Source: an uncultured Gammaproteobacteria bacterium
Lineage (GTDB): Bacteria > Pseudomonadota > Gammaproteobacteria > JAIEPX01
Length of the DNA: 64,000 nt
Assembly: GCA_964567285.1 (NCBI GenBank)
Contig: CAZMLO010000002.1
Span: forward strand, 140,150 to 204,149
Reading direction: 5' to 3'
The notes under the pieces are model-generated. The model had not been told where the DNA came from and did no database searches. It was given only the letters and a program-made list of their open reading frames with translations. Position 1 is the first letter of the stretch. Each line of letters begins with the position of its first letter. Below are positions 863-18,613 of the stretch, piece after piece. The translations under genes and the position numbers were made by a program.

Positions 863-868
863 AATTAT

Positions 869-1237
869 CTAATTAGGCGTCTCAGGAAGTTTTTCGGCAG
901 GTGCAGAACTCACCGGCACTTTCTTCTCTGATTCTTTCGTTACGGGAACTGAGGGTGCTGAAACCGTTTTATGTATAGGCGTTGGCGTTACAATTGCCCC
1001 TTTGGCATGTGTAGACACCATATACGTTAAACCTAAACTGGTCAGAAAAAATATTCCCGCTAAAAGCCCTGTTACTTTCACTAAAAAGGGTGTAGATCCC
1101 GCACTACCAAACATGGTGTTGGATGCCCCACTACCAAAAGCAGCGCCTACATCAGCCCCCTTACCATGCTGTAAAAGCACTAAGGCCACTAAACTAATAC
1201 AAACGAGTACATGTAAAACTAAAATCAACTGTTGCAT
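869..1237 (-). CDS. secG: preprotein translocase subunit SecG
   Basis: MQQLILVLHVLVCISLVALVLLQHGKGADVGAAFGSGASNTMFGSAGSTPFL matches the SecG N-terminal consensus. The start is taken at the internal Met so the overlap with tpiA is only 13 nt. There is an Ala/Pro/Val-rich C-terminal tail. Confidence 0.85.
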   Translation of the reverse strand: MQQLILVLHVLVCISLVALVLLQHGKGADVGAAFGSGASNTMFGSAGSTPFLVKVTGLLAGIFFLTSLGLTYMVSTHAKGAIVTPTPIHKTVSAPSVPVTKESEKKVPVSSAPAEKLPETPN

Positions 1238-2054: not shown

Positions 2055-2081
2055 TTGGGGTTTTATTTTGGGGTTTACAAT
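2055..2081 (+). promoter_or_regulatory. candidate sigma70 promoter of trpR (TTGGGG at 2055-2060, 15-nt spacer, TACAAT at 2076-2081)
   Basis: Hexamers read directly in the divergent tpiA/trpR intergenic region. The spacing is sub-optimal at 15 nt. Confidence 0.3.
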
Positions 2082-2087
2082 ACTGGT

Positions 2088-2110
2088 GTAATGATGTACC
2101 ATTACGTAAT
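2088..2110. promoter_or_regulatory. imperfect palindrome GTAATGATGTACCATTAC plus TTACGTAA immediately downstream of the putative trpR -10; candidate autoregulatory operator
   Basis: 6-bp inverted arms GTAATG/CATTAC around a GTAC-containing core, followed by the perfect palindrome TTACGTAA. The position overlaps the predicted transcription start, as expected for a repressor site. No CTAG core like the E. coli trp operator is present. Confidence 0.25.
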
Positions 2111-2136: not shown

Positions 2137-2427
2137 ATGAAAGACAGTAATGACGAAGGTGGTTGGTGGCGGTTTTTAGCGCTGTGTCTAGAAACTCGAA
2201 CTACTGGTCGGCTGGATAGTTTTTTTGATCTTTTTCTCACGCCCGAGGAAAAAAAGGATCTAACGAATCGATATCTGATTGTACAAGAGTTACTCAAAGG
2301 TGAGCTAACTCAACGAGAGATTGCCTCTGAACTGCAGGTGAGTATTGCCAATATCACGCGCGGATCAAATGGCATTAAGCGGATTGGCGATGATTTGAGA
2401 AATTTTTTAATTAAACGATTAAAATAG
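2137..2427 (+). CDS. trpR: Trp operon repressor TrpR
   Basis: WWRFLALCL...LFLTPEEKKDLTNRYLIVQELLKGELTQREIASELQVSIANITRGSNGIKR aligns along its length with E. coli TrpR (…[49 protein letters not shown]). It is 96 aa. A/T-rich SD precedes the start. Confidence 0.85.
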   Translation: MKDSNDEGGWWRFLALCLETRTTGRLDSFFDLFLTPEEKKDLTNRYLIVQELLKGELTQREIASELQVSIANITRGSNGIKRIGDDLRNFLIKRLK

Positions 2428-2436
2428 TCTCTCACT

Positions 2437-2464
2437 CAAATCGCCAAACCATAATGGCGATTTG
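2437..2464 (+). promoter_or_regulatory. stem-loop (9-bp stem CAAATCGCC/GGCGATTTG, 10-nt loop) between the trpR stop and the trpE RBS
   Basis: Perfect inverted repeat read in the 47-nt trpR-trpE spacer. It ends 1 nt before AGGAG (2465-2469) and 10 nt before the trpE ATG. There is no U-tract after it and no leader peptide ORF. Confidence 0.4.
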
Positions 2465-2474
2465 AGGAGATGAG

Positions 2475-3944
2475 ATGTTTGAATATCTAAATTTTGAACG
2501 CTTTGTTGAACTCGCAGAGAACAACAAACGCATTGTAGTTTATCAAGAAATTGCAGGAGATCGACTAACACCGATCAGTGCTTATTCAGCACTTGCAGAA
2601 CTCTTCACTGATCTAACTCTGCTAGAATCCAATCCTAGAGAACTTCATTTAGGGCGCCATTCATATTTGTGTTTTAATCAGAGCGCCTTAATTAAAGCCT
2701 TTGGCAGAAATATTAGCACTCGCATAGATGATAAAGAAGACTCTTTTATCGGAGATCCTTTTGAAACTCTCAGAGAGTATAAAAACCGTTTCACTGCCAA
2801 AATAGACCATCCACTCTCAGGCTATGCAGGTGGCATGGTTGGTTTTATCAGTTACGATGCAATTCGCCTCATCGAAGAAATTCCGGACCGTCATTATCAG
2901 AAGGATGATATTCCCGATCTATACTTTCGATGTTATGACTACAACATTAGTTTTGATCATCAAACTCAGAAGGTGGTTGTTTCTGTAGTTGCAAATATTC
3001 AAAAGGATGTTGAAGGTGTCTATCAAGATGCTATGAACAAAATACAATTTCTGATCCAGCTGATCAGAAATCATCATGAGCCCTCTAAAGATAATAATCC
3101 TCATCAATCAAACGTTATCACTAAAAATCTTGATGATCAGCGCTTCAAAGAGATGGTTCAAACTGCAAAAGAACATATTATTGCCGGTGATGCATTTCAA
3201 ATCGTTCTCTCAAGAGAATTTAGTGTTAAAACAGAGGCTAAACCTTTTGATATTTACCGATCATTACGCTTCAGTAGCCCTGCTCCATACATGTTTTGTC
3301 TACAATTCGATCATTACTCCATCGCGGGCGCCTCACCGGAGAAATTAGTTTCTGTTCAAAATAGACTTGTTGAAGCACGACCTCTTGCCGGTACTCGACC
3401 CAGAAGTAAATCGATTAGCGATGAAACAATGGCAGCAGACTTGCTGGCGGATGAAAAAGAAATCGCTGAGCATAAAATGTTAGTGGATCTCACACGCAAT
3501 GATATTGGCGCAATAGCGATTCCTGGGAGCGTTAATGTGGTTAAATTATTGGCGGTTGAAAACTTTTCTTCTGTGATGCATTTATCATCCACTGTTCAGG
3601 GAATATTACGCGATGGCTTTGATGCTATCGATGCTCTAAAAGCTACTTTTCCTGCCGGAACACTGAGTGGCGCTCCCAAAATTCGAGCTATGGAAATTAT
3701 TGATGATTTAGAAAGCACACGCCGAGGATTTTATGGTGGAGCTGTTTGTGCTTTTGATAGTTTGGGTAACTTAGAAAGCTGTATTGGTATTCGCACAGCG
3801 GTGATTAAAAATTCAACTGCAGTGGTTCGTGCCGGTGCTGGGATAGTGTTTGACTCAGATCCTCAAAAAGAAGCGGATGAAACCTTTCATAAAGCACGGT
3901 CGATTCTACAAGGTGTTCTGATGACAGAGGAGTTATACTCATGA
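2475..3944 (+). CDS. trpE: anthranilate synthase component I
   Basis: 489 aa. Contains LSREF...PYMF, GASPE, LAGTRPRS and GAVCAFDSLGNLESCIGIRT, the chorismate-binding enzyme signature. A GAGGAG RBS precedes it. Its stop overlaps the trpG start (ATGA). Confidence 0.95.
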   Translation: MFEYLNFERFVELAENNKRIVVYQEIAGDRLTPISAYSALAELFTDLTLLESNPRELHLGRHSYLCFNQSALIKAFGRNISTRIDDKEDSFIGDPFETLREYKNRFTAKIDHPLSGYAGGMVGFISYDAIRLIEEIPDRHYQKDDIPDLYFRCYDYNISFDHQTQKVVVSVVANIQKDVEGVYQDAMNKIQFLIQLIRNHHEPSKDNNPHQSNVITKNLDDQRFKEMVQTAKEHIIAGDAFQIVLSREFSVKTEAKPFDIYRSLRFSSPAPYMFCLQFDHYSIAGASPEKLVSVQNRLVEARPLAGTRPRSKSISDETMAADLLADEKEIAEHKMLVDLTRNDIGAIAIPGSVNVVKLLAVENFSSVMHLSSTVQGILRDGFDAIDALKATFPAGTLSGAPKIRAMEIIDDLESTRRGFYGGAVCAFDSLGNLESCIGIRTAVIKNSTAVVRAGAGIVFDSDPQKEADETFHKARSILQGVLMTEELYS

Positions 3945-4528
3945 TTTTAATCATCGATAACTATGATAGCTTTACCTACAATTTGTATCAATACATCGCA
4001 CCGTTGTGTGATTCAGTGTATGTAGTGCGCAATGATAAAATTAGCATTACCGAAATTGAAGAATATCAACCAAAAGGTATTATTATATCACCAGGTCCTG
4101 GCAGACCTGAAAATGCAGGTATCTGCTTAGAATTAATTCGACATTTTTCAGATAGTATTCCTATTTTGGGAGTCTGCCTCGGGCATCAGGCAATCGCTGT
4201 GGCCTTTGGTGGAGAGGTAGTCGGTGCCAACGACATTGTTCATGGCAAAAATTCACTCACGTATCACAATGGATCAGCATTATATCAGGGTCTGCCACTT
4301 CCTTTCTCAGCGGGGCGGTATCATTCATTGCTAGTCGACAAGAATAGTTTACCGACTAGTCTAAAAATTGATGCTGAAAACAGTGAGGGCCTGATCATGG
4401 GAATAAGCCATCATACTAACCCGACATTCGGTGTGCAATTTCATCCTGAATCCATTCTAACAGCAGAGGGTATTAGCTTACTCAAAAACTTCCTAACGCT
4501 TTGCAATAAAGAGGAGGCCCTATGTTAA
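3941..4528 (+). CDS. trpG: anthranilate synthase component II (class I glutamine amidotransferase)
   Basis: MILIIDNYDSFTYNLYQY...PILGVCLGHQAIA...HPES is a GATase1 triad motif set. It is 195 aa. Confidence 0.9.
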   Translation: MILIIDNYDSFTYNLYQYIAPLCDSVYVVRNDKISITEIEEYQPKGIIISPGPGRPENAGICLELIRHFSDSIPILGVCLGHQAIAVAFGGEVVGANDIVHGKNSLTYHNGSALYQGLPLPFSAGRYHSLLVDKNSLPTSLKIDAENSEGLIMGISHHTNPTFGVQFHPESILTAEGISLLKNFLTLCNKEEALC

Positions 4529-6252
4529 AAGAAATCATTCAAAAATTAACCCTACAAAATAATCTCAGTATTGAGGAAATGAAATTAGCTATGTATGAAA
4601 TTCTGAGTACCGATAACGAGGCACAAATTGCCGCTTTTTTGAGTCTATTAAGAGCAAAAGGAGAAACGGTTGAGGAAATAGTAGGCCTGGTCGCCATACT
4701 GCGTGATCAGATGATTCAGGTTCAGCCTCGATCTCAAGTATTAGATATAGTGGGAACAGGGGGTGATGGCTTTAACACGATCAATATCTCAACTGCATCG
4801 GCGCTATTAGCAGCCTGCTGTGGCGTACGGGTGGTTAAACATGGCAATCGAAGTGTCTCATCACTCTGTGGTTCTGCCGATGTACTTGAAGCACTAGGAA
4901 TTAATATTCATCTCAGTGCTGAGGAGGTCGCTGATAATGTCGAAAACCACAATTTCGGATTTTGTTATGCCCCTAATTTTCATCCGGCTCTTTCCAAAGT
5001 AAAAGCAATACGTCATAAATTAGGTATCACTTCATCGTTTAATTTGATTGCACCGATGCTGAATCCAGCTAATGCTGAATTTCTGATGATTGGGGTTGCC
5101 GACAAAAAAGCAATGAACATTATTGCTGACAGTCTGCTCCACGTTAAACCAAAACGCGCTATTATCTTCCACTGCCAAGGACTTGATGAACTTTGTGGTG
5201 TAGGCCCTATTGATATTATTGAACTTAATCATTCGGTCAAATCATCTTATCAACTTGACCCTATAGACTATAATATTGCTCGATGTACTATAGATGAACT
5301 ACGAGGTGAATCAGCTAAGGAAAATGCCCATCAGATAATGGAAGTTTTTAATGGAGTACCCAATGCCATAGCAGATTCTCTTATTTTAAATGCAGGATTT
5401 GCATGTTATCTTTACGGAATCACTGAATCTCTTGAAAAGGGTATACAACTAGCCAGACAAAAACTCTCCGATGGTTCCGCAGCTCAACTTGTTCTGACAC
5501 TAAAAAACCAAAATAAATTAGAAAAAATACTGTCTAATAAAGCTAAAGAGGTCGATGAGCTGAACAACCGACAAAAGAAAAGTCTTAAGAGGGCCCTCAG
5601 TTCTCCTGGATTATCCATTGTTAGTGAGATAAAGCGAAAATCGCCCTCCAATGGCATACTGAACAATGTAGTTGATCCAACCCTTTTAGTGGAATACTAC
5701 CTTGAAGGGGGTTCAGCCTCAATTTCCGTACTCACCGATACTAAATTTTTTTCTGGATCACTCGTAGATCTTAAAATCATTTCAGATAAACTCAAAGATA
5801 GTCCCACACCGATACTCAGAAAAGATTTTATTATAGAAAAATCGCAGATAGATGAATCCGCCCACTTTGGTGCCGATGCTGTATTATTAATCGTCACAGT
5901 TCTTAAGGAAAGAACAAAAGAATTTTTGGATTATACCGAGTTAAAAGGTCTAGAAGCCTTAGTTGAAGTACACACTCTCGTTGAACTAAAAATTGCGATT
6001 GATGCTGGAGCAAAAATCATAGCCATCAATAATCGAAATTTGAAAACATTTGAAGTTGACATCAATATCTCTCTTGATCTTATAAAACACATCCCATCAG
6101 ATATTATCAAAGTATCAGCATCTGGGATACGCACACCCGATCATTTCAAGACGATGAATGATGCTGGTTTTGATGCTGTATTAGTGGGTGAAGCACTGAT
6201 GAGCTCTGATGATCCCGTTCTCATGATAAAACAATTGCGAGGAGACTTATGA
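4522..6252 (+). CDS. trpDC: bifunctional anthranilate phosphoribosyltransferase / indole-3-glycerol-phosphate synthase (TrpD-TrpC fusion)
   Basis: The N-terminal ~330 aa has GTGGDGFNTINISTASALLAACCGVRVVKHGNRSVSS (TrpD). A K/N/E-rich linker of about 35 aa follows. The C-terminal ~240 aa has IVSEIKRKSPSNGIL...LRKDFII...NNRNL...SGI (TrpC). A GAGGAGG RBS lies at 4511-4517. Confidence 0.9.
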   Translation: MLKEIIQKLTLQNNLSIEEMKLAMYEILSTDNEAQIAAFLSLLRAKGETVEEIVGLVAILRDQMIQVQPRSQVLDIVGTGGDGFNTINISTASALLAACCGVRVVKHGNRSVSSLCGSADVLEALGINIHLSAEEVADNVENHNFGFCYAPNFHPALSKVKAIRHKLGITSSFNLIAPMLNPANAEFLMIGVADKKAMNIIADSLLHVKPKRAIIFHCQGLDELCGVGPIDIIELNHSVKSSYQLDPIDYNIARCTIDELRGESAKENAHQIMEVFNGVPNAIADSLILNAGFACYLYGITESLEKGIQLARQKLSDGSAAQLVLTLKNQNKLEKILSNKAKEVDELNNRQKKSLKRALSSPGLSIVSEIKRKSPSNGILNNVVDPTLLVEYYLEGGSASISVLTDTKFFSGSLVDLKIISDKLKDSPTPILRKDFIIEKSQIDESAHFGADAVLLIVTVLKERTKEFLDYTELKGLEALVEVHTLVELKIAIDAGAKIIAINNRNLKTFEVDINISLDLIKHIPSDIIKVSASGIRTPDHFKTMNDAGFDAVLVGEALMSSDDPVLMIKQLRGDL

Positions 6253-8021
6253 ATACTCAAGTAAAAATATGCGGGATTACTGACCCTAAAATCGCTAAGA
6301 CAATAGCAATGAAAGGTGTCAACTATATTGGTATTATTTTTCATGAGGAGTCTAAACGAAAAGTAGATATCGCTTTGGGCAAAGCCATTGCTGATTCTGC
6401 TAAAGGCGGTGGCGCTATACCAGTTGCAGTCTTTGGTGAACATTCAGGCATCATGATGCAGGAAATTTGTAATGCTACTGGAATTTCAGTGGTACAATTA
6501 CATGGAAAGCTCTCACAGGCTGAGCATCACACTCTAACGAAAGATATTCAGAAAATATTTGTCTTCAAAGTCGATCAGAAAGGTAATATCAACGATAATA
6601 TCGACGAACGTATCCAGATGATGGATCCAGAACAAGATTCCGTACTCTTTGATAATCTTGAAAAAAATTCTATACCTATTCTTCTTACACCTAAAATCAT
6701 TCGCATCGCTAGAAAATATAAAACTTTTATCGCGGGTGGTATCAATAAAAGCAATATAAGAAGTCTTATCGATCAATGTCAGCCCTATGCCATAGACCTC
6801 TGCTCAGGCGTTGAAAATTCACGGGGTGAAAAGAAATTGGAGATGATAAACGAGATTCTTAACGAAACCGCACGTTATGGTCGCTATGGCGGGAGATATA
6901 TGCCAGAATCATTGATGGCACCTCTGACGCAACTCGCCTCTGAATTTCATCACATCAAAAATGATCCGCAATTTCAAAATGAATTCAACTCACTGTTAAA
7001 AGAGTATGGGGGAAGACCGACCCCATTAACAGAAGTTAAACGTTTCCAACTATTTGCAAAGGGTCCAAGAATTTTTTTAAAAAGAGAAGATTTGTTACAC
7101 ACCGGAGCTCATAAAATCAATAATGCCCTTGGCCAATGTCTGCTCGCAAAAAAAATGGGCAAAGTCCGTGTTATCGCAGAAACGGGCGCCGGCCAACATG
7201 GCGTTGCTACTGCGACTGCTTGTGCCCGCCTTGGACTCGAGTGTATCGTCTATATGGGTGCCATCGATCTGATTCGACAAGCGCCTAATGTCGATAAAAT
7301 GCGCTTATTAGGTGCGAACGTAATTGCTGTTGAAGATGGCTCTAAAACATTGAAAGAGGGCGTGAATGCAGCACTTCGAGACTATGCCAGCAGTTTTCAA
7401 AATACCCATTATTGCTTAGGTTCAGCCCTAGGCCCTCATCCCTATCCTGAAATGGTTGCTTATTTTCAATCTGTGATTGGTCAAGAAACACAGGAGCAAT
7501 GCCACACCATTTTTGGAAAATCTCCAGATCTGATCATCGCTTGCATAGGTGGTGGATCCAATGCTATTGGTATTTTCTCGGCCTTTCTTAAGCAAGATGT
7601 TCAACTGGTTGGCGTTGAAGCAGGTGGAACAGGATTACAACATGCTGCTCGATTTCAAGGAGGAAGTCCTGGCATTTTACATGGCTGCATGAGCTATCTT
7701 CTGCAAGATGAAAACGGGCAAGTTCAGAATACTCATTCTATTTCTGCCGGTCTTGATTATCCAATGATAGGACCTCAACATGCTCATCTTTATGAAACAA
7801 AGCGCGTTAAATACAATTTATGCACAGATGATGAAGCACTCCATGCTTTTAAAATATTAAGCCAAACAGAAGGAATTATTCCTGCTTTGGAATCCGCTCA
7901 TGCACTGGCCTATTATTTAAGAGAAGCTCCGAAAATGCACCCTGATAGCATCGTTATCGTTAATTTATCCGGCCGAGGTGACAAAGACATCACACAATTA
8001 GCTAGAAGGGAATTACTATGA
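6249..8021 (+). CDS. trpFB: bifunctional phosphoribosylanthranilate isomerase / tryptophan synthase beta chain (TrpF-TrpB fusion)
   Basis: The N-terminus MNTQVKICGITDPKIAKTIAMKGVNYIGIIF is PRAI. From about residue 210, RYGRYGGRYMPESLM...HTGAHKINNALGQCLLAKKMGKVRVIAETGAGQHGVATA...GGGSNAIG is the TrpB PLP enzyme. An ATGA overlap is present at both ends. Confidence 0.9.
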   Translation: MNTQVKICGITDPKIAKTIAMKGVNYIGIIFHEESKRKVDIALGKAIADSAKGGGAIPVAVFGEHSGIMMQEICNATGISVVQLHGKLSQAEHHTLTKDIQKIFVFKVDQKGNINDNIDERIQMMDPEQDSVLFDNLEKNSIPILLTPKIIRIARKYKTFIAGGINKSNIRSLIDQCQPYAIDLCSGVENSRGEKKLEMINEILNETARYGRYGGRYMPESLMAPLTQLASEFHHIKNDPQFQNEFNSLLKEYGGRPTPLTEVKRFQLFAKGPRIFLKREDLLHTGAHKINNALGQCLLAKKMGKVRVIAETGAGQHGVATATACARLGLECIVYMGAIDLIRQAPNVDKMRLLGANVIAVEDGSKTLKEGVNAALRDYASSFQNTHYCLGSALGPHPYPEMVAYFQSVIGQETQEQCHTIFGKSPDLIIACIGGGSNAIGIFSAFLKQDVQLVGVEAGGTGLQHAARFQGGSPGILHGCMSYLLQDENGQVQNTHSISAGLDYPMIGPQHAHLYETKRVKYNLCTDDEALHAFKILSQTEGIIPALESAHALAYYLREAPKMHPDSIVIVNLSGRGDKDITQLARRELL

Positions 8022-8785
8022 AACATTTATTTAATAAACGCCCCGCATTTGTTGCATACCTTACAGCAGGACAGAAAAGTTTAAATTTTACCAAAGAAGC
8101 AGCCATTGCGTTGGCCGATGGAGGTGTTGACTTGCTAGAAATTGGTGTGCCTTTTTCTGACCCTATTGCCGATGGCCCCGTTATCGCACAGGCGATGAAT
8201 GAGGCACTGTCTCACTCTGTTAGACTCCACTCTGTTCTAGATATCATTCATGAAATTAAACAAGTTAGAAATATTCCTATTGTACTCTTCACCTACTTCA
8301 ACCCACTCTTTAAAACAGGAATTGATAACCTAATGAATGAGGCGAAGCAAGCAGGGATCGATGCTATTTTAACTGTCGATTTACCATTGGAAGAATCATC
8401 AGACTATTTCTCGTCTGCTAAGAATGCTGCCATCGATATTATTAGTCTTATCTCACCCTCAACAGAACCTGAGCGCATTCTAAAAATCTGTGAAAATCAC
8501 CCTGCTATTCTTTATTATGTTTGTCGTAATGGCATAACCGGACTTAAAGATAATCTTCCTTCAGATTATGTTGACAAACTTTCACAAATAAAATCTATTA
8601 CGAAAATACCGATCATCTCAGGCTTTGGTATTTCAACGAAAAAAATGGCCTCATCTGTACTAAGATGTGCCGATGGTTTTGTGGTGGGCTCTCTGTTTGT
8701 CAAAGCAATATCAGAGGGAGCATCACCTTTAGCACTTCAACAATTAGCTATCAACTTAGATCCAAGAGAGGGGGTAATATCATGA
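8018..8785 (+). CDS. trpA: tryptophan synthase alpha chain
   Basis: 255 aa with AYLTAG...[18 protein letters not shown]...GFGIS motifs. Its stop overlaps the start of the DAHP synthase gene (ATGA). Confidence 0.9.
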
Positions 8786-9627
8786 TTTTAGTCGGCAGAG
8801 ATATGAAGAAATCTAATACAGTAATCCGTATTAAAGATAAAGAAATTGGTGGTGGTGCGTTTACCATCATGGCAGGACCTTGCACTATTGAATCGAGGGA
8901 TCAGATGTTCTCTATTGCGAAAGCGGTTAGTGAATGCGGTGCCACAATTCTGCGAGGTGGTGCATTTAAACCCAGAACTTCACCTTATGACTTCCAAGGA
9001 CTAGGTGAAGAAGGCCTGCAATATATGCGTGAAGCAGCAGACAAATATCAGATGCTTTGTATTTCGGAAGTGATGAGCCCAGAAGAAGTCCCACTGGTGG
9101 AGCAATACGTCGATATTTTGCAAATTGGTGCGCGTAATATGCAAAACTTTAGTTTGTTAAAATCGGTAGGAAAATCAAAAATTCCGGTATTACTAAAAAG
9201 GGGACTCTGTGCCACCTATAAAGAATTTTTATTAGCCGCTGAATATATTATGAGCTGTGGTAATCTCAATGTTATTCTCTGTGAACGCGGAATTCGTACC
9301 TTTGAAACGCTGAGCCGAAATACACTGGATATCGCCGCCGTGCCAATTCTGAAGGAACTCACTCACCTACCCATTATTGTAGACCCAAGCCATGGTACTG
9401 GATTAAGATCTATTGTGGGGCCCATGGCCCTCGCGGCTATGGCAGTAAAGGCGGACGGGCTTATTGTGGAGGTCCACACCGACCCCGATCAATCGATTTG
9501 CGATGCCCAACAAACCATTAGCCCAAAGATGCTATCTGAGATAGTGGGAGGTTTGCAGAAAATCGGCAATGCTGTGAATATGACTGTAGCGGGAAAGACC
9601 ACCCAACAGGAGAGACTCGTCGCATGA
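8782..9627 (+). CDS. 3-deoxy-D-arabino-heptulosonate-7-phosphate synthase, short class I-beta (KDO8PS-like) type without regulatory extension
   Basis: [21 protein letters not shown]...[27 protein letters not shown]...[11 protein letters not shown]...KRG...IVDPSHGTG matches DAHPS I-beta. The start is taken at ATG 8782 (ATGA coupling to trpA, RBS AGAGGGGG at 8766) rather than the longer ORF, which would overlap trpA. Confidence 0.85.
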
Positions 9628-10904
9628 AAAGTTACAAAATTAGGCCTTCAAAGCTCAGGGGAAGTATCAGTGCATCCCCCTCAAAATCGCAGAGTATGAG
9701 GGCCATTTTATTCGCGACCATGGCTAGCGGCAAAAGTATTATCAAAAACTGCTTAAATTCTCCTGATATTGATGCAATGATTAAGGCCTGCAGAAAATTA
9801 GGCGCTGAAATTAGTTGCAGGCAAAATACCCTTGAAATTATTGGTGTTGCCGGCAAACCCTCTATACCTGATGATGTGATTGATGCGGGTAATTCAGGAC
9901 AAGTATTACGTTTTGTCGCCGCTATTGCTTCCTTAACGAAAGGCACAACCGTGCTTACAGGTGATCATTCTGTGCGTTACAATCGCCCTGTCCGACCTTT
10001 AATGGATGGCCTCTCTCAATTAGGTGTTGAATGCTACAGCACGAAAGATGATGATCACGCTCCTCTGGTTGTGCGGGGACCTCTTCAACCTGGTATCACT
10101 TTTCTCGATGGAGCCGATTCTCAACCCGTGTCTGGCCTTTTGATTGCTGCGGCTTTTCTAAACGGCATTACACAAATTCATGTCAAAAACCCCGGCGAAA
10201 AGCCCTGGGTGAATTTAACACTGAGCTGGTTAGACCGCTTCGGCATTCAATACACCAATGAAAATTTTGAAAAAATCACTGTGGCAGGCAATCCTATTAT
10301 ACAAGGTTTTGAATACACAGTATCCGGTGATTTTAGCTCAATCGCTTATCCCATTGTGGCTGCACTACTGACACAATCGGAAATTACCGTGAATAATATT
10401 GACATGAATGATGCCCAAGGCGATAAAAAAATTATTGCTGTACTAAAAAAAATGGGCGCCATTATCGAAGTGAATGAAAATAAATTATTAGTTAAATCCA
10501 GCGGCACCCTAAAGGGATGTGAAATTGATGTTAACGATTTTATTGATGCTATCACTATTCTAGCAGTTGTAGGTTGTTACGCTTCAGGCACAACCACATT
10601 GACCAACGCGGCTATTGCCCGAAAAAAAGAGAGTGATCGATTGTCGTCTATTAGCGCAGAGTTAAAAAAAATGGGTGCTGATATTAGTGAAACTCATGAT
10701 AGCCTTATCATTCAAGGTAAACCCCTGAGCGGTTCCACATGCCTATCCTATCACGACCACCGTATCGCCATGTCTTGTACTATTGCAGCACTCGGCGCTG
10801 ATAAGGAAACAATTATACAAGATACTGCCTGCGTCACCAAAAGTTACCCCGATTTTGTTGCGGACATGCAGCGACTGGGATGTGAGATGGAGGTGATTGA
10901 ATGA
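9624..10904 (+). CDS. aroA: 3-phosphoshikimate 1-carboxyvinyltransferase (EPSP synthase)
   Basis: 426 aa with an EPSPS fold: [37 protein letters not shown]. Confidence 0.9.
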
Positions 10905-11419
10905 ACTTGATCTTATGCGGCTATCATTGTTCTGGAAAAACAACTATCGCCAAAGCCTTTTCAATAAAATACGATTACCATTATATTGATACTGACGATC
11001 TTGTTGCTCGAGCAAAAGGCCTAAAAGATTCTCGTGCCGTTCATACACTATTAGGTGAAGAGGACTATCGTTCTTTTGAAAAAAGCATTGTGCATTCCCT
11101 AAAAGATATCAATAATACCATAATAGCCACTGGAGGGGGTGTTTTATTAAATAGTGAAAACACGCACCATCTCAAGACATTGGGTAAAATAATTTATTTA
11201 TACGTTGAAACAGAGACACTACGGCAAAGAATCTTAGAAAAAAAATCACTCCCTAACTTTATCCGTGAATCCTCCTTCGATGAAGATTTCAAACGCTACA
11301 TCGATAGCCGCAAAACACTCTATGATTCTGAAGCAGACATTAAACTCAATGTAACAGAAAAATCTGTCGAAGAAATCTTATCCTTAATTAACCAGTACAG
11401 GTCTGATCATGGCATCTAA
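10901..11419 (+). CDS. aroK: shikimate kinase
   Basis: 172 aa. It has the Walker A motif GYHCSGKTT, a DTD motif and GGG...L, typical shikimate kinase architecture. It sits within the aro block. Confidence 0.8.
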   Translation: MNLILCGYHCSGKTTIAKAFSIKYDYHYIDTDDLVARAKGLKDSRAVHTLLGEEDYRSFEKSIVHSLKDINNTIIATGGGVLLNSENTHHLKTLGKIIYLYVETETLRQRILEKKSLPNFIRESSFDEDFKRYIDSRKTLYDSEADIKLNVTEKSVEEILSLINQYRSDHGI

Positions 11420-12491
11420 TTCTTTCGGTAATATTTTTAGAATCACGACATGGGGCGAATCCCATGGAAAAGGAATCGGCGTCGTTATCGATGGCTGCCC
11501 TGCAGGTATCGAGATATCGGATACTGATATAAATACTGCTTTAGCCTTACGCGCACCTGGCACTAATCCTTTTACCTCACCTCGTAAAGAACCCGACATT
11601 GCGGAAATATATTCTGGTATTTTCGAGGGAAAAACCACGGGTACCCCACTCTCGATCGTTATCATGAATAAAGATTCTGATTCAAGCAAATATGAGCCCA
11701 TTAAGAATTTGCTACGGCCTGGCCACGCTAACTTTACTTATCTCGAAAAATACGGCTGCTTCGATTATCGCGGTGGCGGCAGAGCTTCTGCTAGAGAAAC
11801 TGCTTGCCGAGTAGCCGCAAGTGCGGTTGCTAATAAAATATTAGCGCACGAAAAAATCGAAGTGATTGCTTATATAAAAAGTATTGGCAACATCGATATG
11901 TCACTCGAGCATCTTGATCTTAGTATGATCAAAACTCAAACTCAGAGTAGCTCCATATTTTGCCCTGATACAGTTTCCGCAGAAAAAATGATGGCAGCTA
12001 TAACAGCCGCCAAAGAAGAAGGTGATTCGCTTGGTGGCATTGTGGAATTTTTAGTGCTCAATATGCCTGTAGGTTTGGGTGATCCCATTTATGAAAAATT
12101 AGAAGCCAATTTAGCCAAAGCGATGATGTCGCTTCCTGCAACCAAGGGTTTTGAAATTGGCGAAGGTTTTGCAGCTACGCGCATGAAAGGTTCAACACAT
12201 AACGATGAATTCAGCACTAAAAGAATAACTAGCACTAATCACGCCGGTGGAACTTTAGCCGGGATTTCAACAGGGATGCCCTTAATGGGCAGAGTGGCTT
12301 TTAAACCCACTTCGAGTATCAACAAAGTACAGAATACTGTTGATGATCAGGGCCAACAACAAAAATTTAAATTACCAGAAGGCTCTCGACATGATCCCTG
12401 CGTCGCTATCCGAGCAGTACCCGTCGTCAGTGCCATGTGCAGTTTGGTAATTGCGGATGCCTTACTCATGAACCGATCGTGCAAATTGTGA
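11409..12491 (+). CDS. aroC: chorismate synthase
   Basis: FRITTWGESHGKGIGVVIDGCPAG...RPGHANFTY..KYG..DYRGGGRASARET is canonical. Confidence 0.9.
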   Translation: MASNSFGNIFRITTWGESHGKGIGVVIDGCPAGIEISDTDINTALALRAPGTNPFTSPRKEPDIAEIYSGIFEGKTTGTPLSIVIMNKDSDSSKYEPIKNLLRPGHANFTYLEKYGCFDYRGGGRASARETACRVAASAVANKILAHEKIEVIAYIKSIGNIDMSLEHLDLSMIKTQTQSSSIFCPDTVSAEKMMAAITAAKEEGDSLGGIVEFLVLNMPVGLGDPIYEKLEANLAKAMMSLPATKGFEIGEGFAATRMKGSTHNDEFSTKRITSTNHAGGTLAGISTGMPLMGRVAFKPTSSINKVQNTVDDQGQQQKFKLPEGSRHDPCVAIRAVPVVSAMCSLVIADALLMNRSCKL

Positions 12492-12561
12492 GAATGAATA
12501 TGACTGCCAACTACTTGCCCCTAAATGAAAGGTCCCTATTTCACCTAAAAGAGGAGAAATA

Positions 12562-13650
12562 ATGACACATCCTTTCGTAATTGGTGAAAATCTGCTGTTG
12601 AGTCAACACATCATTGAGCTTTGCCCAAGAGCCTGTTCGCAATTCGTGATTATCACGGATGATAATGTTCAGCCTCTTTACGCTGCCAAATTAAAAGAAC
12701 ACCTCAGACTCAATGATTTAAACTCACACATCATCACTATTCCAAATGGTGAGGCATCAAAATCAAGAGAAATGGTTGCGAAAATTCAAGATCAACTCTT
12801 AGATTTAGGTTATGGACGCGATACTTGCATTCTGGCTTTAGGCGGTGGAGTTATCACCGATTTAGCCGGGTATGTTGCCGCAACTTATTGTCGTGGCATT
12901 CCCGTGATTTACTTGCCCACCACTTTATTAGCCATGGTGGATGCAGCCCTGGGTGGAAAAACAGGTGTTAATACACCACACGGTAAAAATCTTATTGGCG
13001 TTTTTGCTCAACCTAGAGCTATTTTATCAGATATCAGCACTTTAAAAACTTTAGCTGAAGCTGAATTTCGCTTCGCCTTTGCTGAAATTATAAAACATGC
13101 CATAATATTTGATCATGAATATTTCGATACCCTATTGAAGCATGCTGATGCTCTCAAAAACCGTGACTTAAATCTTCTCAAAACAATTATTCAACGCAGT
13201 TGCGAAATAAAATCGAAAATAGTCTTAGAAGATGAAAAAGATCAGGGCATCCGCACAATCTGTAATTTTGGCCATACTATCGGGCACGCACTGGAATTTG
13301 TTTCAGATTATACCCTCAATCATGGACAAGCCGTCGCGATCGGGATGATGATAGAGTCATTTATCGCCACACAGATGGGCATATTATGCAACGCTGATTT
13401 TGATAAAATAAAAGAGATTCTGTCTCTTTTCGATCTCACCGCATCCCTACCCTGCACTACCACACCAGAGAAGATCAAAAACGCTTTGATCTTAGATAAA
13501 AAATCTCGGGAAAAAAGCCCAAGATTCATTTTAATTCAAAGCATAGGCAAGGTATATAAAGAACAATCCAATTACTCTCACCCCGTGGATCAGATTATTT
13601 TAGACAAAGCACTGGATTATTTAACCACCGAATTCATGGAGCGATCATGA
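12562..13650 (+). CDS. aroB: 3-dehydroquinate synthase
   Basis: 362 aa with LGGGVITDLAGYVAATYCRGIP, GGKTGVN and NFGHTIGHALE metal site motifs. A 70-nt gap precedes it, and GAGGAG lies at the RBS. Confidence 0.9.
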   Translation: MTHPFVIGENLLLSQHIIELCPRACSQFVIITDDNVQPLYAAKLKEHLRLNDLNSHIITIPNGEASKSREMVAKIQDQLLDLGYGRDTCILALGGGVITDLAGYVAATYCRGIPVIYLPTTLLAMVDAALGGKTGVNTPHGKNLIGVFAQPRAILSDISTLKTLAEAEFRFAFAEIIKHAIIFDHEYFDTLLKHADALKNRDLNLLKTIIQRSCEIKSKIVLEDEKDQGIRTICNFGHTIGHALEFVSDYTLNHGQAVAIGMMIESFIATQMGILCNADFDKIKEILSLFDLTASLPCTTTPEKIKNALILDKKSREKSPRFILIQSIGKVYKEQSNYSHPVDQIILDKALDYLTTEFMERS

Positions 13651-15011
13651 TTGTAACGATAATTCAACAAAAAAATACTGCTGATTTATACGGTCAGTAT
13701 CTACGCTGCAGCGATTTATCTGAAGCTTTCGAATTTCGTCTGGACTACTTAGATATTATAGATATTGAAGCTCTCTGTGAATTGAGATCTAAAATTCATA
13801 AGCCGATTATTTTGACCTTAAGACCCGACCCAAATTCTCAGAATGAAGAAAAAAGACTCGCAACACTGATGGAATTAGGCAGAGCAAACCCCGATTATGT
13901 GGATATAGAACACAGTGTTAGCCCTAGATTTATCGAAGAATTCCATCATAAATACTCTGAAATCAAGATCATACGATCCTACCACAATTTTGACGAAACA
14001 CCACAAGACCTAAAATCTATCCTGATTCAATTAGAACATCCATTCTGTGACATTTATAAAATAGTCACTACAGCAACTTCTAGTCTCGACAATTTAACGG
14101 TACTCCACTTTCTAAAAGATCACTCTAAATCTTATAACATAGCAGCACACTGCATGGGTGAATTAGGAACTCCTTCTCGGGTTTTATCCCCCATTCTGGG
14201 CAGTCAATTACAATATGTAGCCGCAGATGAAACACAAATACCAGCACCTGGCTGCTTTTCACTCAATACTTTATTACAAAATTACCAGGGAAAAAACATT
14301 GATCATCTCACTAAGATTTATGCTTTGCTGGGAAACCCGGTAGAACAAAGCCCGGGCCACATTTTTCACAACAACATTTTTCAAAAATCCGCGGCAAAAT
14401 CCGTGTACGTCAAATTCAAGCTCACAAACGAAGAGCTTCCTCTATTTTTAAAACAAATAACAGGTTTGCCCTTTCATGGATTTAGCGTCACGATTCCCTT
14501 AAAAAGAGATATAATCCAATTCATCGATCTTTTTGAGAACGATTCTGACCAAATCGGAGCTATCAACACAATTCGTGTCGAGAATAATCAATTATTAGGA
14601 CTCAATACCGATGGCGCAGGAGCACTGAATGCTCTTGAAAGAATTCAGCGGGTAAAATCGAAAAATGTTTTAATTATAGGTGCCGGCGGCTCAGCTAAAG
14701 CGATTGCTTATGAAGCCCAAAAAAGAGGGGCAGCCTCCATTGTGATTATCGATCGAACTCTAAAAGGTCCGGATGATTTATCAAATCCAGACTCTTTCGA
14801 TTTTGTTATCAACGCCCTACCCCCTGCAATCGATTACCCCATCACACCTCAATTTAGCACAACCGCCGTTTTCATGGATATCAATTACCACCAACCCGAG
14901 AGCCGATTAAAATCCCTTGCCCTTGCCGCTGGGTGTACACTCGTGGATGGCTATGAAATGTTCGTTGAACAGGCATTGCTACAACAGGACTATTGGATTT
15001 CATCTCAATAA
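13647..15011 (+). CDS. aroDE: bifunctional type I 3-dehydroquinate dehydratase / shikimate dehydrogenase (AroD-AroE fusion)
   Basis: The N-terminal half has the type I DHQase signature CMGELGTPSRVLSPILGS. The C-terminal half is shikimate DH (YALLGNPVEQSPGHIFHN, NTDGAGALNAL, a Rossmann GAGGSAKA). It has an ATGA overlap with aroB. Confidence 0.85.
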   Translation: MIVTIIQQKNTADLYGQYLRCSDLSEAFEFRLDYLDIIDIEALCELRSKIHKPIILTLRPDPNSQNEEKRLATLMELGRANPDYVDIEHSVSPRFIEEFHHKYSEIKIIRSYHNFDETPQDLKSILIQLEHPFCDIYKIVTTATSSLDNLTVLHFLKDHSKSYNIAAHCMGELGTPSRVLSPILGSQLQYVAADETQIPAPGCFSLNTLLQNYQGKNIDHLTKIYALLGNPVEQSPGHIFHNNIFQKSAAKSVYVKFKLTNEELPLFLKQITGLPFHGFSVTIPLKRDIIQFIDLFENDSDQIGAINTIRVENNQLLGLNTDGAGALNALERIQRVKSKNVLIIGAGGSAKAIAYEAQKRGAASIVIIDRTLKGPDDLSNPDSFDFVINALPPAIDYPITPQFSTTAVFMDINYHQPESRLKSLALAAGCTLVDGYEMFVEQALLQQDYWISSQ

Positions 15012-15014
15012 CTT

Positions 15015-16178
15015 TCAAGTACTCCAATTCTTCGAGAGGATATCTAAATACTCGCCTTCTTTTTCGTCTTTAGGCATATTGTGTTTTCCCTCATGAATAT
15101 ATTTTGCTATTTTTCTTGCATCGTTGGAGTTAAAAAATGACTGAGATAAATGTTGCTTTACTTTTGGGTCTGGCTCTTGCGAATCAAACCAGTTTTCCCG
15201 AAATAGATAATCAGCCAAATGGACGAAGTATTCCATTTGTTGTTTTGTCATAGGAGGATAATCTTCATCAAGATTTCCATCGTAGGGAATCATACTAACT
15301 TCACAGCCAGAGTTTAGAGCAAACTGTAGAATTCCCAGCAAATGACCTACACCAACAGCCGATAGATTATCACCCACCACGAGAAATTCTTTCAGCTTCT
15401 CACAAAATATCCGATCTCGTTTAGTAACGTTTTCATCGTAAATTTTTTGAGCCAGAACAGGAAGTCTTTCACGGAATTTTTTAGTTATAATATTATGTTT
15501 TAAACAAGCGGATATTAACGATAAATTTCCGCTTTTATATGCTTTTAGCAACTGCCCGAGTATTTTATCAAGGCAAACACTGTCTGTATTTAATAGATCA
15601 GGTAATGATAATTTAAAAACCTGAAGTTGCTCATCGAATGTTAAATATAGCCCTTGAAGTAGGGAGTTAACATCAGTTGCTGATTCTAGCCCTGTTATTT
15701 TCTTTGAATTTTCTCTAGCATACTCTGCTAATAATACATCAGTGCCTTTCTTAACATCATCAACCATTTTTTTAGACATACTCAGCATTTGTAACAAATG
15801 CAGCGGTGTCATCATGTTCATCATTTCTTCTAATTCTCTAACTTCTAATTTTTCATTGCCTGTATATGACATCAATTTTACACATATTGCTGCAATTTGC
15901 TCATTGGATAAATTCGCATTTTTAAAAAAATCATAACACCCAGGGTTATCATATCGCCACAAAAGACAAGCCATATCATCTACAATCGTGTCATCAGGTG
16001 ATTTTTCTAAAATTAATGTAGATACTTTGCCACACACCTTTTTCACGATATTTGGCAGCTCCGAAGAACTGTGGAAAGTTCCATATAGATAGGTTACAGC
16101 TCCCTCGGGTGTTTTCACTTTATACAGATTCGATAACGATATTCTGTTTGTATCTTTTTTTTCTTGCTTGTGATCCAT
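15015..16178 (-). CDS. TraB/GumN family protein (possible secreted/effector-like protein)
   Basis: 387 aa with YLYGTFHSSSE near the N-terminus and AVGVGHLLG near the C-terminus, the two conserved blocks of the TraB/PrgY/GumN family. The acidic C-terminus is KDEKEGEYLDILSKNWST. It converges on aroDE with a 3-nt gap. Confidence 0.55.
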   Translation of the reverse strand: MDHKQEKKDTNRISLSNLYKVKTPEGAVTYLYGTFHSSSELPNIVKKVCGKVSTLILEKSPDDTIVDDMACLLWRYDNPGCYDFFKNANLSNEQIAAICVKLMSYTGNEKLEVRELEEMMNMMTPLHLLQMLSMSKKMVDDVKKGTDVLLAEYARENSKKITGLESATDVNSLLQGLYLTFDEQLQVFKLSLPDLLNTDSVCLDKILGQLLKAYKSGNLSLISACLKHNIITKKFRERLPVLAQKIYDENVTKRDRIFCEKLKEFLVVGDNLSAVGVGHLLGILQFALNSGCEVSMIPYDGNLDEDYPPMTKQQMEYFVHLADYLFRENWFDSQEPDPKVKQHLSQSFFNSNDARKIAKYIHEGKHNMPKDEKEGEYLDILSKNWST

Positions 16179-16429
16179 TTAAATCTCCAAGTACTCTTCA
16201 GTTAATCATTCAATTGGGTATGGGCTGCTTATTACGATGCATTTTCAACCTCTTTACCCACTAGTAACTTTAAGTATTACTTATGAACATGAAATTGTCA
16301 AAGCACCCTATTTTAGGGACATCTAGACCATATTCCTAAAGTTTGGGATACTTACAGATATAACATATGAGCGTCGAATTTACAGACTAGAATATTTTCA
16401 TTTAATCGAATAATACTATTGAAGACACG

Positions 16430-17770
16430 CTATTGTATTTGAGAAATTGTTCGAGCCAAACCTTGGGCCAATGATTCTACGAGTTCGATACTTTGCCCTT
16501 CTACCATTACTCGCACTACAGGTTCGGTGCCTGAAGCACGCAATAATACACGGCCACTGTTTCCTAATTTGCTTTCTGTATCACGAATCGCTTCTTGTAA
16601 GTGCGCGCTTTTGAGATCAAAGGATTTTGGCGTAGGGATGTTCAGTAAAACTTGAGGGTATTTTTTCATACCATTTTTTAATTCGGCTAAATTTTGACCT
16701 GATTCGATCACTGCACATAAAACCTGTAAGGCAGAAATAATTCCGTCGCCGGTGGTAGATAAAGCCAAATGCACAATGTGGCCCGACGATTCTCCACCAA
16801 TTTGCCAGCCTTTTTGTTTGAGTCTTGTCATTACGTGTCGATCGCCCACAGCCACTCGTTCGAATGGAATACTGAGTGAAGCCAGCCCTTCTTCAAAACC
16901 TAAGTTGGTCATCGATGTGCCAACAATACCGCCTTGGAGTTTATTAATTTTTTTAAGGTGACGGGCAATAATAAATAGCAGTTGATCACCGTCAACAATT
17001 TCTCCGGTATGATCAACCATAATAACCCGATCGCCATCACCATCGAAAGCAATTCCTATATCAGCATTTTGTTCAAGCACAGTAGCTTGTAAATCATGGG
17101 GATGCGTTGAACCGCAAAGTGCATTAATATTCAATCCATTAGGTCGATTAGAAATTTCATGGACTTCCGCACCCAATTCTCGAAATACTGCTGGAGCAAC
17201 GTGATAAGTTGCGCCATTCGCACAATCGACCACGATTTTTAAACCATTAAAATTAATGCGAGAAGGAACTGTACTTTTACAAAATTCGATATAGCGACCA
17301 GCTGCATCCACAACGCGCACCGCTTTACCTAATTTTGCAGAATCCACTGTCTGCATGGGCTTTTCGAGTTGTGCCTCAATTTGGAGTTCAATATCATCCG
17401 GTAATTTAAATCCTTCGGAGGAGAAAAATTTTAATCCATTATCTTCAAAACCATTATGAGACGCACTGATCACAATGCCTGCACAAGCTCTGAGTGTTCG
17501 AGTTAAATAGGCAATGGCAGGCGTCGGCATAGGGCCCAATAAATGAATATCCATTCCTGCAGCAGATAATCCCGCTTCTAAAGCAGATTCCAACATGTAG
17601 CCAGAAATACGCGTATCTTTCCCGATCAATACTTTTCCACGCGTTGCGGTGCCTAAAATTTTTCCAATAGCCCAACCAAGTTTAATCACAAACATAGGGT
17701 TAATTAAAGAATCGCCGACTTTCCCTCGAATTCCGTCAGTACCAAAATATTGTTGTGTTGTCATGATCAA
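16430..17770 (-). CDS. glmM: phosphoglucosamine mutase
   Basis: [10 protein letters not shown], the phosphoserine loop [14 protein letters not shown], and DGDGDR are present. Confidence 0.9.
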
Positions 17771-17773
17771 TCC

Positions 17774-18598: not shown

Positions 18599-18613
18599 GC
18601 CTAACCCCTGCTA

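Follow-up and report, generated by a model that had tools for sequence, protein, structure and literature searches.

Why should the enzymes of tryptophan and shikimate biosynthesis be joined in pairs, and in pairs other than those known from E. coli? The question is raised by a 64,000-nucleotide stretch of DNA from an uncultured Gammaproteobacteria bacterium (GenBank assembly GCA_964567285.1, contig CAZMLO010000002.1, positions 140,150 to 204,149; the window, in what follows), in which three open reading frames (ORFs) of a trp-aro gene block each seem to encode two enzymes: TrpD with indole-3-glycerol-phosphate synthase (the TrpC enzyme, IGPS), phosphoribosylanthranilate isomerase (PRAI, the TrpF enzyme) with TrpB, and a type I 3-dehydroquinase (DHQase) with shikimate dehydrogenase (SDH). 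An initial annotation of the window had called these three fusions and offered several ideas about what they do and what they mark. As will be shown below, the fusions are genuine, uninterrupted two-enzyme genes. The explanation that we hold, with good though not complete confidence, is that they encode bifunctional enzymes of one operon, probably TrpR-regulated, that they were driven by the adjacency of the genes concerned, and that the operon would be a cassette of the Chlamydiae/Coxiella type in a gammaproteobacterium.

Three uninterrupted two-enzyme genes

All three ORFs are found in the ORF list exactly where the initial annotation had placed them, on the forward strand, and Pfam recognizes both expected halves in each. 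In trpDC (4522-6252) the TrpD half is covered by Glycos_trans_3N and Glycos_transf_3 (residues 3-320) and the IGPS half by residues 342-572; in trpFB (6249-8021), PRAI occupies residues 5-205 and the PALP/TrpB match residues 253-574; in aroDE (13647-15011), DHquinase_I (24-211) is followed by Shikimate_dh_N (227-309) and a weak Shikimate_DH match, and the MGELGTPSR motif by which the dehydroquinase half had been identified lies at residues 170-178. The translations read through the three junctions with no stop codon or frameshift at any of them. The 576-residue TrpD-IGPS protein is encoded, in identical form, in three independent Logan assemblies (SRR28640814, SRR28640811 and SRR28640822), and the exact PRAI-TrpB and the exact DHQase-SDH proteins are each recorded on two contigs. 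Since identical proteins come from assemblies of independent read sets, the question that resequencing of the junctions was to settle has largely been answered.

PRAI is indeed followed directly by TrpB: the last PRAI helix (197-207) leads at once into the N-terminal TrpB motif ARYGRYGGRYMPE, and the AlphaFold2 model of the protein, with a predicted local distance difference test score (pLDDT) of 90.7 and a predicted template modeling score (pTM) of 0.79, has complete folds and no disordered linker. For aroDE, the comparison with the plant arrangement holds well; the best match in the PDB is the Arabidopsis bifunctional enzyme (2gpt), with which both domains and also the junction between them are collinear.

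The junction in trpDC had been described differently, as a K/N-rich, low-complexity linker of about 35 residues, and this description did not stand. The string in question, KNQNKLEKILSNKAKEVDELNNRQKKSLKRAL, does occupy residues 328-359; what it forms, however, is the alpha0/alpha00 helix at the N-terminus of IGPS. In IGPS chains of the PDB, 30-47 residues precede the position that aligns to trpDC residues 352-355, and a relative whose genes are unfused (locus L024 in our numbering, discussed below) has a stand-alone TrpC that begins with MHDILKEIINQKQIEV...KSFKQAI...GEIKRKS, which is collinear with NKLEKILSNKAKEV...KSLKRAL...SEIKRKS of trpDC. The AlphaFold2 model of TrpD-IGPS (pLDDT 93.0, with no residue below 50) ends TrpD with helix 319-328 and forms alpha0 with helix 332-348, and the connector predicted between the two domains is only about three residues long; the pTM of this model is 0.64, and the pLDDT is 65-69 around helix alpha0. 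The NxLxEIxxRK motif is kept in most of the 61 fused TrpD-IGPS homologues and is deleted in a subset of shorter fusions, the protein of a Chlamydiales metagenome-assembled genome (MAG) among them. Across the fused sub-clades the junctions vary widely in length and sequence, with linkers of 0-90 residues and some proteins lacking helix alpha0.

Taken domain by domain, the family-invariant residues, which are presumed to be catalytic, are all kept. The TrpD domain reaches the curated trpD threshold (TIGR01245), and its residues GTGGD (78-82), KHGN (106-109) and D222/E223 are invariant in the 61 fused homologues, as are E369, K371, K434, E482, N503 and S534 of the IGPS domain. The latter domain is whole, alpha0 and these residues included, in agreement with the "complete TrpC" of the initial annotation; the best NCBIfam TrpC model gives 254.7 on trpDC, slightly below its cut-off of 260. 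Among 60 fused homologues of trpFB, the PRAI residue C8 is kept in 58 and D135, as D or E, in all 60, and in the TrpB domain K289 (of the HTGAHK motif) is kept in 59 and E311 in all 60, with GGGSNA and SGRGDKD conserved as well. In aroDE, residues H113, K138 and R178 of the DHQase half are invariant in 41 fused homologues, and so are K286, N307, D322 and G345/G347/G348 (the GAGG NADP-binding motif) of the SDH half, which were aligned to 2gpt. By what is generally known of these families, we take C8 and D135 to be catalytic in PRAI, K289 and E311 to be the lysine that binds pyridoxal phosphate and the catalytic glutamate of TrpB, H113 and K138 (the Schiff-base lysine) to be catalytic in DHQase, and K286 and D322 to form the catalytic pair of SDH. 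In pairwise comparison with two relatives (loci L016 and L018), dN/dS is 0.04-0.16 for every domain taken separately and 0.04-0.12 for PRAI, values that are approximate, with dS saturated (above 1), and each of the six domains appears to be under purifying selection.

The operon and its counterparts

The fusions belong to a translationally coupled run of 12 genes, trpR-trpE-trpG-trpDC-trpFB-trpA-aroG-aroA-aroK-aroC-aroB-aroDE, which takes up 12.9 kb of one strand (2137-15011) and encodes, on 12 polypeptides, all seven steps of the shikimate pathway and the whole tryptophan branch. All 12 genes are intact (Table 1). Nine of the 11 gene boundaries are ATGA or short overlaps, with GAGG-like Shine-Dalgarno motifs ahead of them.

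Table 1. Features of the trp-aro block and of its immediate flanks (positions are those of the window).
Feature	Position	Strand	Evidence
Left flank, host backbone: tpiA (1225-1983), secG (869-1267), tRNA-Leu(GAG) (776-862)	776-1983	-	Pfam TIM; SecG in identical Logan contig; ARAGORN and Rfam
Promoter-like site TTTACA-17 nt-TACCAT (2074-2102) over palindrome GTAATGATGTACCATTAC (2088-2105)	2074-2105	+	Promoter scan; conservation in relatives
trpR, repressor of the trp operon, at the head of the block	2137-2427	+	TIGR01321 TrpR, 96.8 bits (cut-off 67.25); Pfam Trp_repressor in identical Logan contigs
trpE, anthranilate synthase component I	2475-3944	+	Pfam Chorismate_bind and Anth_synt_I_N
trpG, glutamine amidotransferase component, separate 195-residue ORF	3941-4528	+	Pfam GATase; ATGA overlap with trpE; 7-nt overlap with trpDC
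TrpD domain, trpDC residues 1-328	4522-5505	+	TIGR01245, 342.8 bits (cut-off 199.05); PDB TrpD chains align to 1-332
trpDC inter-domain connector (NQN, residues 329-331), predicted	5506-5514	+	AlphaFold2 secondary structure: helix 319-328, break, helix 332-348
IGPS (TrpC) domain, trpDC residues 332-576, with alpha0 332-348	5515-6252	+	Pfam IGPS, 221.9 bits; PDB alignments
PRAI (TrpF) domain, trpFB residues 1-207	6249-6869	+	Pfam PRAI, 1-192 of 193 profile positions; eight beta-strands in AlphaFold2 model
TrpB domain, trpFB residues 208-590	6870-8021	+	TIGR00263, 586 bits (cut-off 392); best PDB match 6v82_B, E = 7e-156
trpA, tryptophan synthase alpha	8018-8785	+	Pfam Trp_syntA; ATGA overlap with trpFB
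aroG-type DAHP synthase, class I-beta, 281 residues	8782-9627	+	NCBIfam NF006421, profile positions 71-336 of 338; 281-residue gene call in identical Logan contig
aroA, EPSP synthase	9624-10904	+	Pfam EPSP_synthase
aroK, shikimate kinase	10901-11419	+	Pfam SKI
aroC, chorismate synthase	11409-12491	+	Pfam Chorismate_synt
aroB, 3-dehydroquinate synthase	12562-13650	+	Pfam DHQ_synthase and DHQS_C
Type I 3-dehydroquinase domain, aroDE residues 1-222	13647-14312	+	Pfam DHquinase_I; collinear with Arabidopsis 2gpt
Shikimate dehydrogenase domain, aroDE residues 223-454	14313-15011	+	Pfam Shikimate_dh_N; TIGR00507 aroE, 191 bits (slightly under cut-off 200)
Right flank, host backbone: TraB/PrgY/GumN-family gene (15015-16178), glmM (16430-17770), folP (17774-18598), ftsH (18614-20770)	15015-20770	-	Pfam

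A promoter-like site overlying a palindrome is found upstream of trpR. A scan of the block for promoters and terminators gave no enrichment over shuffled sequences (41 vs. 40.6 and 14 vs. 11.3, respectively), and we make use of the site nevertheless because it is conserved in relatives: TTGACA...TGTAATG-N6-CATTACA stands upstream of trpR in L016 (~7545-7590) and in L020, the Chlamydiales MAG (~7885-7925), a GTACTA..TAGTAC version of the palindrome in L021 (~7725-7770), and the same arrangement of promoter and palindrome again in L024 (~7535-7575). The palindrome is likely to be the operator of TrpR, a candidate that would travel with the cassette, and its conserved association with a promoter makes autoregulation of the whole operon by TrpR a reasonable inference. 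Rfam found only the tRNA in the window, and gave no match to a T-box, attenuator or riboswitch family ahead of the operon. The 47-nt spacer between trpR and trpE holds a perfect 8-bp hairpin, AAATCGCC-N10-GGCGATTT (2449-2474), which comes directly ahead of the trpE Shine-Dalgarno motif and has no T-run after it.

Two further observations concern the make-up of the encoded proteins. The DAHP synthase is a bare catalytic core lacking the N-terminal ferredoxin-like FXD regulatory domain; the homologue in L018 (349 residues) carries DAHP_snth_FXD, the one in L016 has FXD as well, and the versions in L020, L021 and L024 are 50-60 residues longer. Feedback inhibition of this enzyme may have been replaced by TrpR control. 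The other observation is the scarcity of tryptophan. There is not one Trp residue in TrpE, TrpG, TrpD-IGPS, PRAI-TrpB, TrpA and the DAHP synthase, 2,386 residues together (2475-9627), and the whole 12-gene block has only six in 4,256 residues (0.14%), compared to 0.88% across 15 of the window's other ORFs. The same low-Trp bias has been reported for the Trp-pathway enzymes of chlamydiae (PMC3937554); it is more extreme in the window operon.

The closest counterpart in overall design comes from the Chlamydiae. Simkania negevensis has an operon of the order trpR-trpE-trpG-trpD-trpC-trpF-trpB-trpA-DAHPS, the last being the DAHP synthase gene, with overlapping and translationally coupled genes (PMC3937554; PMC4916741), and its unfused trpD, trpC, trpF and trpB encode proteins of 330, 264, 207 and 389 residues (PMC3937554). 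The window has the same order, begins with trpR in the same way and has the DAHP synthase gene as its last trp-linked gene; it differs from Simkania in the fusion of D with C and of F with B, in the addition of aroA, aroK, aroC, aroB and aroDE, and in its gammaproteobacterial host. The marks of a chlamydial-type operon are all found in it: trpR first, E-G-D-C-F-B-A, a DAHP synthase gene after trpA, and overlapping genes. As for an affinity to the chlamydial trp genes in sequence, the best PDB match of the TrpB domain is 6v82_B, which we take to be the Chlamydia trachomatis enzyme, and the F+B tree described below, built without Simkania sequences, has a poorly resolved backbone around Coxiella.

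The trp operons of Coxiella and Chlamydiae are themselves related (PMC3937554), and it is Coxiella burnetii that provides the known counterpart of trpFB. Its PRAI/TrpB protein (CBU_1155, P0267 in our set; models NF010376 and PRK13803), which is functionally uncharacterized (PMC6736304; PMC3937554), has the same order of PRAI, then TrpB, a very short junction, and 54% identity to the window protein over 99% of the query. NF010376 aligns trpFB residues 2-585 to positions 4-592 of its 600. The architecture is shared, but with a score of 718.6 bits, below the cut-off of 819, trpFB is no close equivalog of this Coxiella-based model. The Coxiella operon has F and B fused but trpD and trpC apart, is not linked to trpR, lacks a DAHP synthase gene, and is decaying (PMC3937554; PMC6736304). 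That of the window, in contrast, is intact, and has trpD fused to trpC as well.

The aroDE chain has the same domain order as the Chlamydia AroDE type (NF006802) and the plant DHQ-SDH (2gpt/6bmb), and is collinear with the former over residues 1-452 and with 2gpt over residues 26-375. It has 454 residues, as against ~477 in the NF006802 model and 523 in the plant chain. In its substrate-binding S-x-S motif, Gly takes the place of the second Ser. A DHQase-SDH fusion has been reported for Chlamydia (PMC3937554).

The trp fusions of E. coli (TrpG-TrpD; TrpC-TrpF, PDB 1pii) likewise turned neighboring trp genes into bifunctional chains. The partners are different ones, as the initial annotation had seen: in the window trpG is an ORF of its own, TrpD is joined to IGPS and PRAI to TrpB, the models for the E. 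coli-type TrpG/TrpD and TrpC/TrpF (NF007073, NF006945) match one half each, and 1pii matches one domain only. The linkage of shikimate and trp genes in one transcription unit is a feature shared with the aro-trp supraoperon of Bacillus subtilis; that supraoperon, however, has an incomplete shikimate set, none of these fusions, TRAP instead of TrpR, and another gene order.

Spread and origin of the fusions

How widely do these fusions occur? TrpD and IGPS are both present in 119 of the 120 best clusters matching the window protein. Function names have been given to 11 of the 120 listed matches by JGI or NCBI, all of them only "anthranilate phosphoribosyltransferase". NCBIfam has no bifunctional TrpD/TrpC model, though models for TrpG/TrpD, TrpC/TrpF, TrpC/TrpB and TrpF/TrpB exist, and no chain in the PDB spans TrpD and IGPS; nor was a published description of this fusion found in literature searches, which did not cover the reviews of Xie et al. 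(2003) and Merino et al. (2008). TrpD-IGPS is the least documented of the three fusions, yet it is clearly not rare, being abundant in metagenomes. PRAI and TrpB are both present in 115 of the 120 best clusters, the Coxiella burnetii protein, to which NCBI gives a bifunctional name, among them; for DHQase-SDH, nearly all of the best 150 representatives (clustering at 50%) match collinearly over the full length, and there are 1,078 matches at E <= 1e-30. These two architectures are already catalogued in curated NCBIfam models.

The copies of the block closest to that of the window, in L016 and L018, also have the 12 genes and the three fusions, at 72-79% identity, and a block of trpE-G-DC-FB-A-DAHPS is found in L019, L020 and L021. 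Wherever both genes are visible, that is, in the window, L016, L017, L018, L019, L020 and L021, the two trp fusions are on one contig, and about 28 further TrpD-IGPS/PRAI-TrpB pairs were inferred from contigs of equal size. Two proteins, P0007 (798 residues) and P0065 (808 residues), are triple fusions with TrpD, IGPS and PRAI on one chain, ~41-46% identical to the window protein. Some candidates did not hold up on closer inspection. The TrpB of L020 was called as an unfused 377-residue protein, but the gene was under-called, and the ORF list shows a 549-residue ORF with PRAI and TrpB. Conversely, PRAI-TrpB fusions suspected in MAGs of Ignavibacteriales, Zixibacteria and Flavobacteriales were rejected, as tblastn puts the halves in different frames and L002 has two overlapping ORFs; in these FCB-group MAGs trpF and trpB are adjacent and unfused. 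The trpA gene is split into two ORFs in L016 (13494-15285) and L019 (13496-14268), and the DAHP synthase gene of L016 is in pieces, which may be due to indel errors of long-read assemblies or to early pseudogenization.

In a neighbor-joining tree of concatenated TrpD+C+F+B (1,093 columns, 100 bootstraps, rooted on the unfused operons of the FCB group), the operons with both trp fusions form a clade with 100% support, and the twin state is kept down to ~45% identity. The exception is L024 (GCA_021773305.1, 10001-13650), where trpD, trpC, trpF and trpB are four separate genes with proper starts in the same operon, and which stands inside the twin-fusion clade as sister to the group of the window, again with 100% bootstrap. 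An IS66 transposase lies directly downstream of aroDE in L024. The simplest reading of this topology would be that each fusion arose once and that L024 later underwent secondary fission. The suggestion that the fusions are stable phylogenetic markers for the lineage can thus be kept in part: what the twin trp fusion marks is a broad clade of trp operons and not a lineage of organisms, since it is found in a gammaproteobacterium, in the Chlamydiales MAG and in MAGs labeled Verrucomicrobia and Burkholderiales, the unfused L024 nests within the fused clade, and the context of the operon differs in each close relative.

By the mechanism that we envisage, the stop/start boundary between neighboring, translationally coupled genes would have been lost, from the ancestral orders trpD-trpC-trpF-trpB and aroD-aroE. 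The order D-C-F-B is seen also in unfused relatives, namely Simkania (PMC3937554), L024 and the FCB-group MAGs, and because it is the same there, the fusion partners can be regarded as simple neighbors. The initial annotation had spoken of consecutive or near-consecutive enzymes on one chain (steps 2+4 and 3+5b of tryptophan synthesis, steps 3+4 of the shikimate pathway). The assignment of steps is right by established pathway knowledge, and the two domains of aroDE do catalyze consecutive steps; the trp fusions, in contrast, join neighbors in the gene order D-C-F-B. The reactions run in the order D, F, C, A, B, and therefore no intermediate passes between the two domains of either trp fusion. 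The pairing of steps 2+4 and 3+5b would then reflect the adjacency of genes, not the hand-over of a substrate within one chain. Each domain is most likely an independent catalytic module, and the fusion would fix a 1:1 stoichiometry and co-localization of its two activities; if the unfused enzymes are a guide, the fusion proteins may assemble as (TrpD-IGPS)2 and TrpA2(PRAI-TrpB)2. That PRAI would be physically coupled to the TrpA/TrpB complex, as had also been proposed, is plausible because trpA comes after trpFB and overlaps it.

It is worth spelling out what weighs against this reading. The activities of the chains are predictions from genes and modeled structures, and the saturation of dS mentioned above limits what can be drawn from dN/dS. 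The scores of the two curated fusion models fall short of their cut-offs, 718.6 bits against 819 for trpFB with NF010376 and 295.2 against 598 for aroDE with NF006802. Compared with typical enzymes, the SDH domain is short by ~20-40 residues, and the Pfam match to its nucleotide-binding half is weak. In the PRAI loop that follows the presumed catalytic D135, the subclade to which the window belongs lacks a GGSG motif present in other fused homologues; PRAI is therefore the least certain of the activities. In composition, the block (GC 0.407) equals the window (0.409) and gives no sign of recent acquisition. And there could be more than neutral adjacency behind the fact that the two trp fusions so widely occur together.

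Might the fusions have arisen several times, in the window clade, in the L019 clade and in the large clade that contains the Chlamydiales MAG, with the unfused L024 keeping the ancestral state? Overlapping, coupled genes need only a small indel to become one; gene fusion is, by the general view, a more frequent event than fission; and the junctions differ widely between sub-clades, as seen above from the deletion of alpha0 in some of them and from the range of linker lengths. Such a history would, however, take about six events on the TrpD+C+F+B tree, as against two fusions and two fissions. A tree of F+B puts L024 together with the fused P0257 (71%), inside a 100% clade with the fused P0256, although its backbone is poorly supported and the trees bearing on this question are by neighbor-joining only. 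We consider repeated origins unlikely on this evidence.

A bolder possibility takes up the co-occurrence just mentioned. The two interleaved trp fusions could have been selected together, as parts of a super-complex of (TrpD-IGPS)2 and TrpA2(PRAI-TrpB)2 in which phosphoribosylanthranilate (PRA) and carboxyphenylaminodeoxyribulose phosphate (CdRP) are shuttled between the chains; this we think rather improbable. The path of the shuttle, just as doubtful, would lead from D on chain 1 to F on chain 2, back to C on chain 1, and then to A and B on chain 2. The presence of both fusions on the same contig in all seven loci that show both, the ~28 inferred pairs and the retention of the twin state across the clade are what one would expect of it, and the chemical instability of PRA, which is established knowledge, would give the channeling a use; the pTM of PRAI-TrpB (0.79) suggests a defined arrangement of its domains. 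The corresponding value for TrpD-IGPS, on the other hand, is only 0.64, with lower confidence round alpha0. The fusions are also separable, for Coxiella has F-B only (PMC3937554, PMC6736304) and P0007 and P0065 have D-C-F on one chain, and the natural fission in L024, which has secondarily unfused all four genes with its operon intact, argues that such a complex is not essential. The same slim chance applies to the wider picture of an undescribed metabolon that feeds the TrpA-TrpB indole tunnel, on a mobile, Trp-free and TrpR-controlled cassette leading from erythrose 4-phosphate (E4P) and phosphoenolpyruvate (PEP) to Trp and shared by environmental Chlamydiae and intracellular Gammaproteobacteria.

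Least credible of all is that one or more fusions are artefacts, through a stop codon or frameshift lost by a sequencing or assembly error, or belong to a decaying gene with an inactive PRAI or SDH: the pseudogenes in the Coxiella trp operon (PMC6736304; PMC3937554), the missing GGSG of the PRAI loop, the weak Shikimate_DH match and the split genes of L016 and L019 would fit with it, but the artefact is largely refuted by the identical fusion proteins of three independent assemblies and by the more than 110 clusters that carry each trp fusion, and decay is at odds with invariant residues that are all kept, low dN/dS in every domain including PRAI, and 12 intact genes.

Genomic setting and meaning of the cassette

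Both flanks of the block are host backbone. The ten closest FtsH homologues are 88-90% identical and 646-650 residues long, and the one among them with an organism name (P0138, 88%) is from a "Gammaproteobacteria bacterium"; further organism-named bacterial matches, at 72-80% identity, are labeled Gammaproteobacteria, Pseudomonadota or Proteobacteria bacterium. A match named "Kaarinaea lacus", a cyanobacterial label on a 6.5-kb contig, was set aside as probable contamination. The FtsH names, along with synteny, point to a gammaproteobacterial host. The ftsH ORF of the window (718 residues from a TTG) is ~70 codons longer than its close homologues, which cover 90% of the query, and its start is probably downstream of that TTG.

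Between glmM and tpiA the window has the TraB/PrgY/GumN-family gene and the trp-aro block. The order in L022 (8558-13748) is ftsH-folP-glmM, then a 1,481-residue ankyrin-patatin protein and TerC, then tpiA-secG-nuoA, and in L023 (14374-18441) glmM is followed by other genes, one for a DnaJ-domain protein among them. Because other genes occupy the interval in these two, the site is a variable one within this lineage. Apart from generic matches (RND pump, shikimate kinase), the window was found to have no flanking genes in common with L016, L018, L019 or L024. The cassette was probably acquired or relocated as a unit.

Several other genes of the window may be mentioned. A transporter of the Trp/Tyr permease family (20939-22129, forward strand) adjoins ftsH, and a class I tRNA synthetase of the W/Y type, 333 residues long, is found at 44355-45356 (forward strand); the genome appears to have uptake of tryptophan or tyrosine besides synthesis. 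Four large ORFs have no Pfam match at E <= 1e-5: 25448-27799 (reverse strand, 783 residues), 33850-35049 (reverse, 399), 46947-51107 (forward, 1,386) and 57142-60162 (forward, 1,006). These ORFs might code for effector-like proteins of a bacterium that lives inside cells. A patatin-like phospholipase is encoded at 32661-33692, and the ankyrin-patatin protein of L022 hints at a host-associated lifestyle.

What does the finding mean? On the practical side, pathway reconstructions from MAGs may report a missing trpC wherever TrpD-IGPS is named only as "anthranilate phosphoribosyltransferase", which a bifunctional model would fix. The PRAI-TrpB of Coxiella is no oddity of that genus; it belongs, together with the fusions of the Chlamydiales MAG and of the gammaproteobacterium of the window, to one large clade of fused trp operons. 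This sharpens the published hypothesis of a transfer from Chlamydiae to Coxiella, in that the donor may already have had the fusion. The clade also offers, with L024, a natural example of fusion and then fission. The fusions are real but, by themselves, fairly ordinary, and it is the whole near-Trp-free cassette that we find, in a modest way, the more interesting part. One operon, probably controlled by TrpR, holds all 15 activities needed to go from central metabolites (erythrose 4-phosphate and PEP) to tryptophan, and it gives the impression of a self-contained means of getting through tryptophan starvation. This would be relevant if the host of the cassette is intracellular, which is hinted at by the patatin gene, the large orphan ORFs and a relative's ankyrin-patatin gene.

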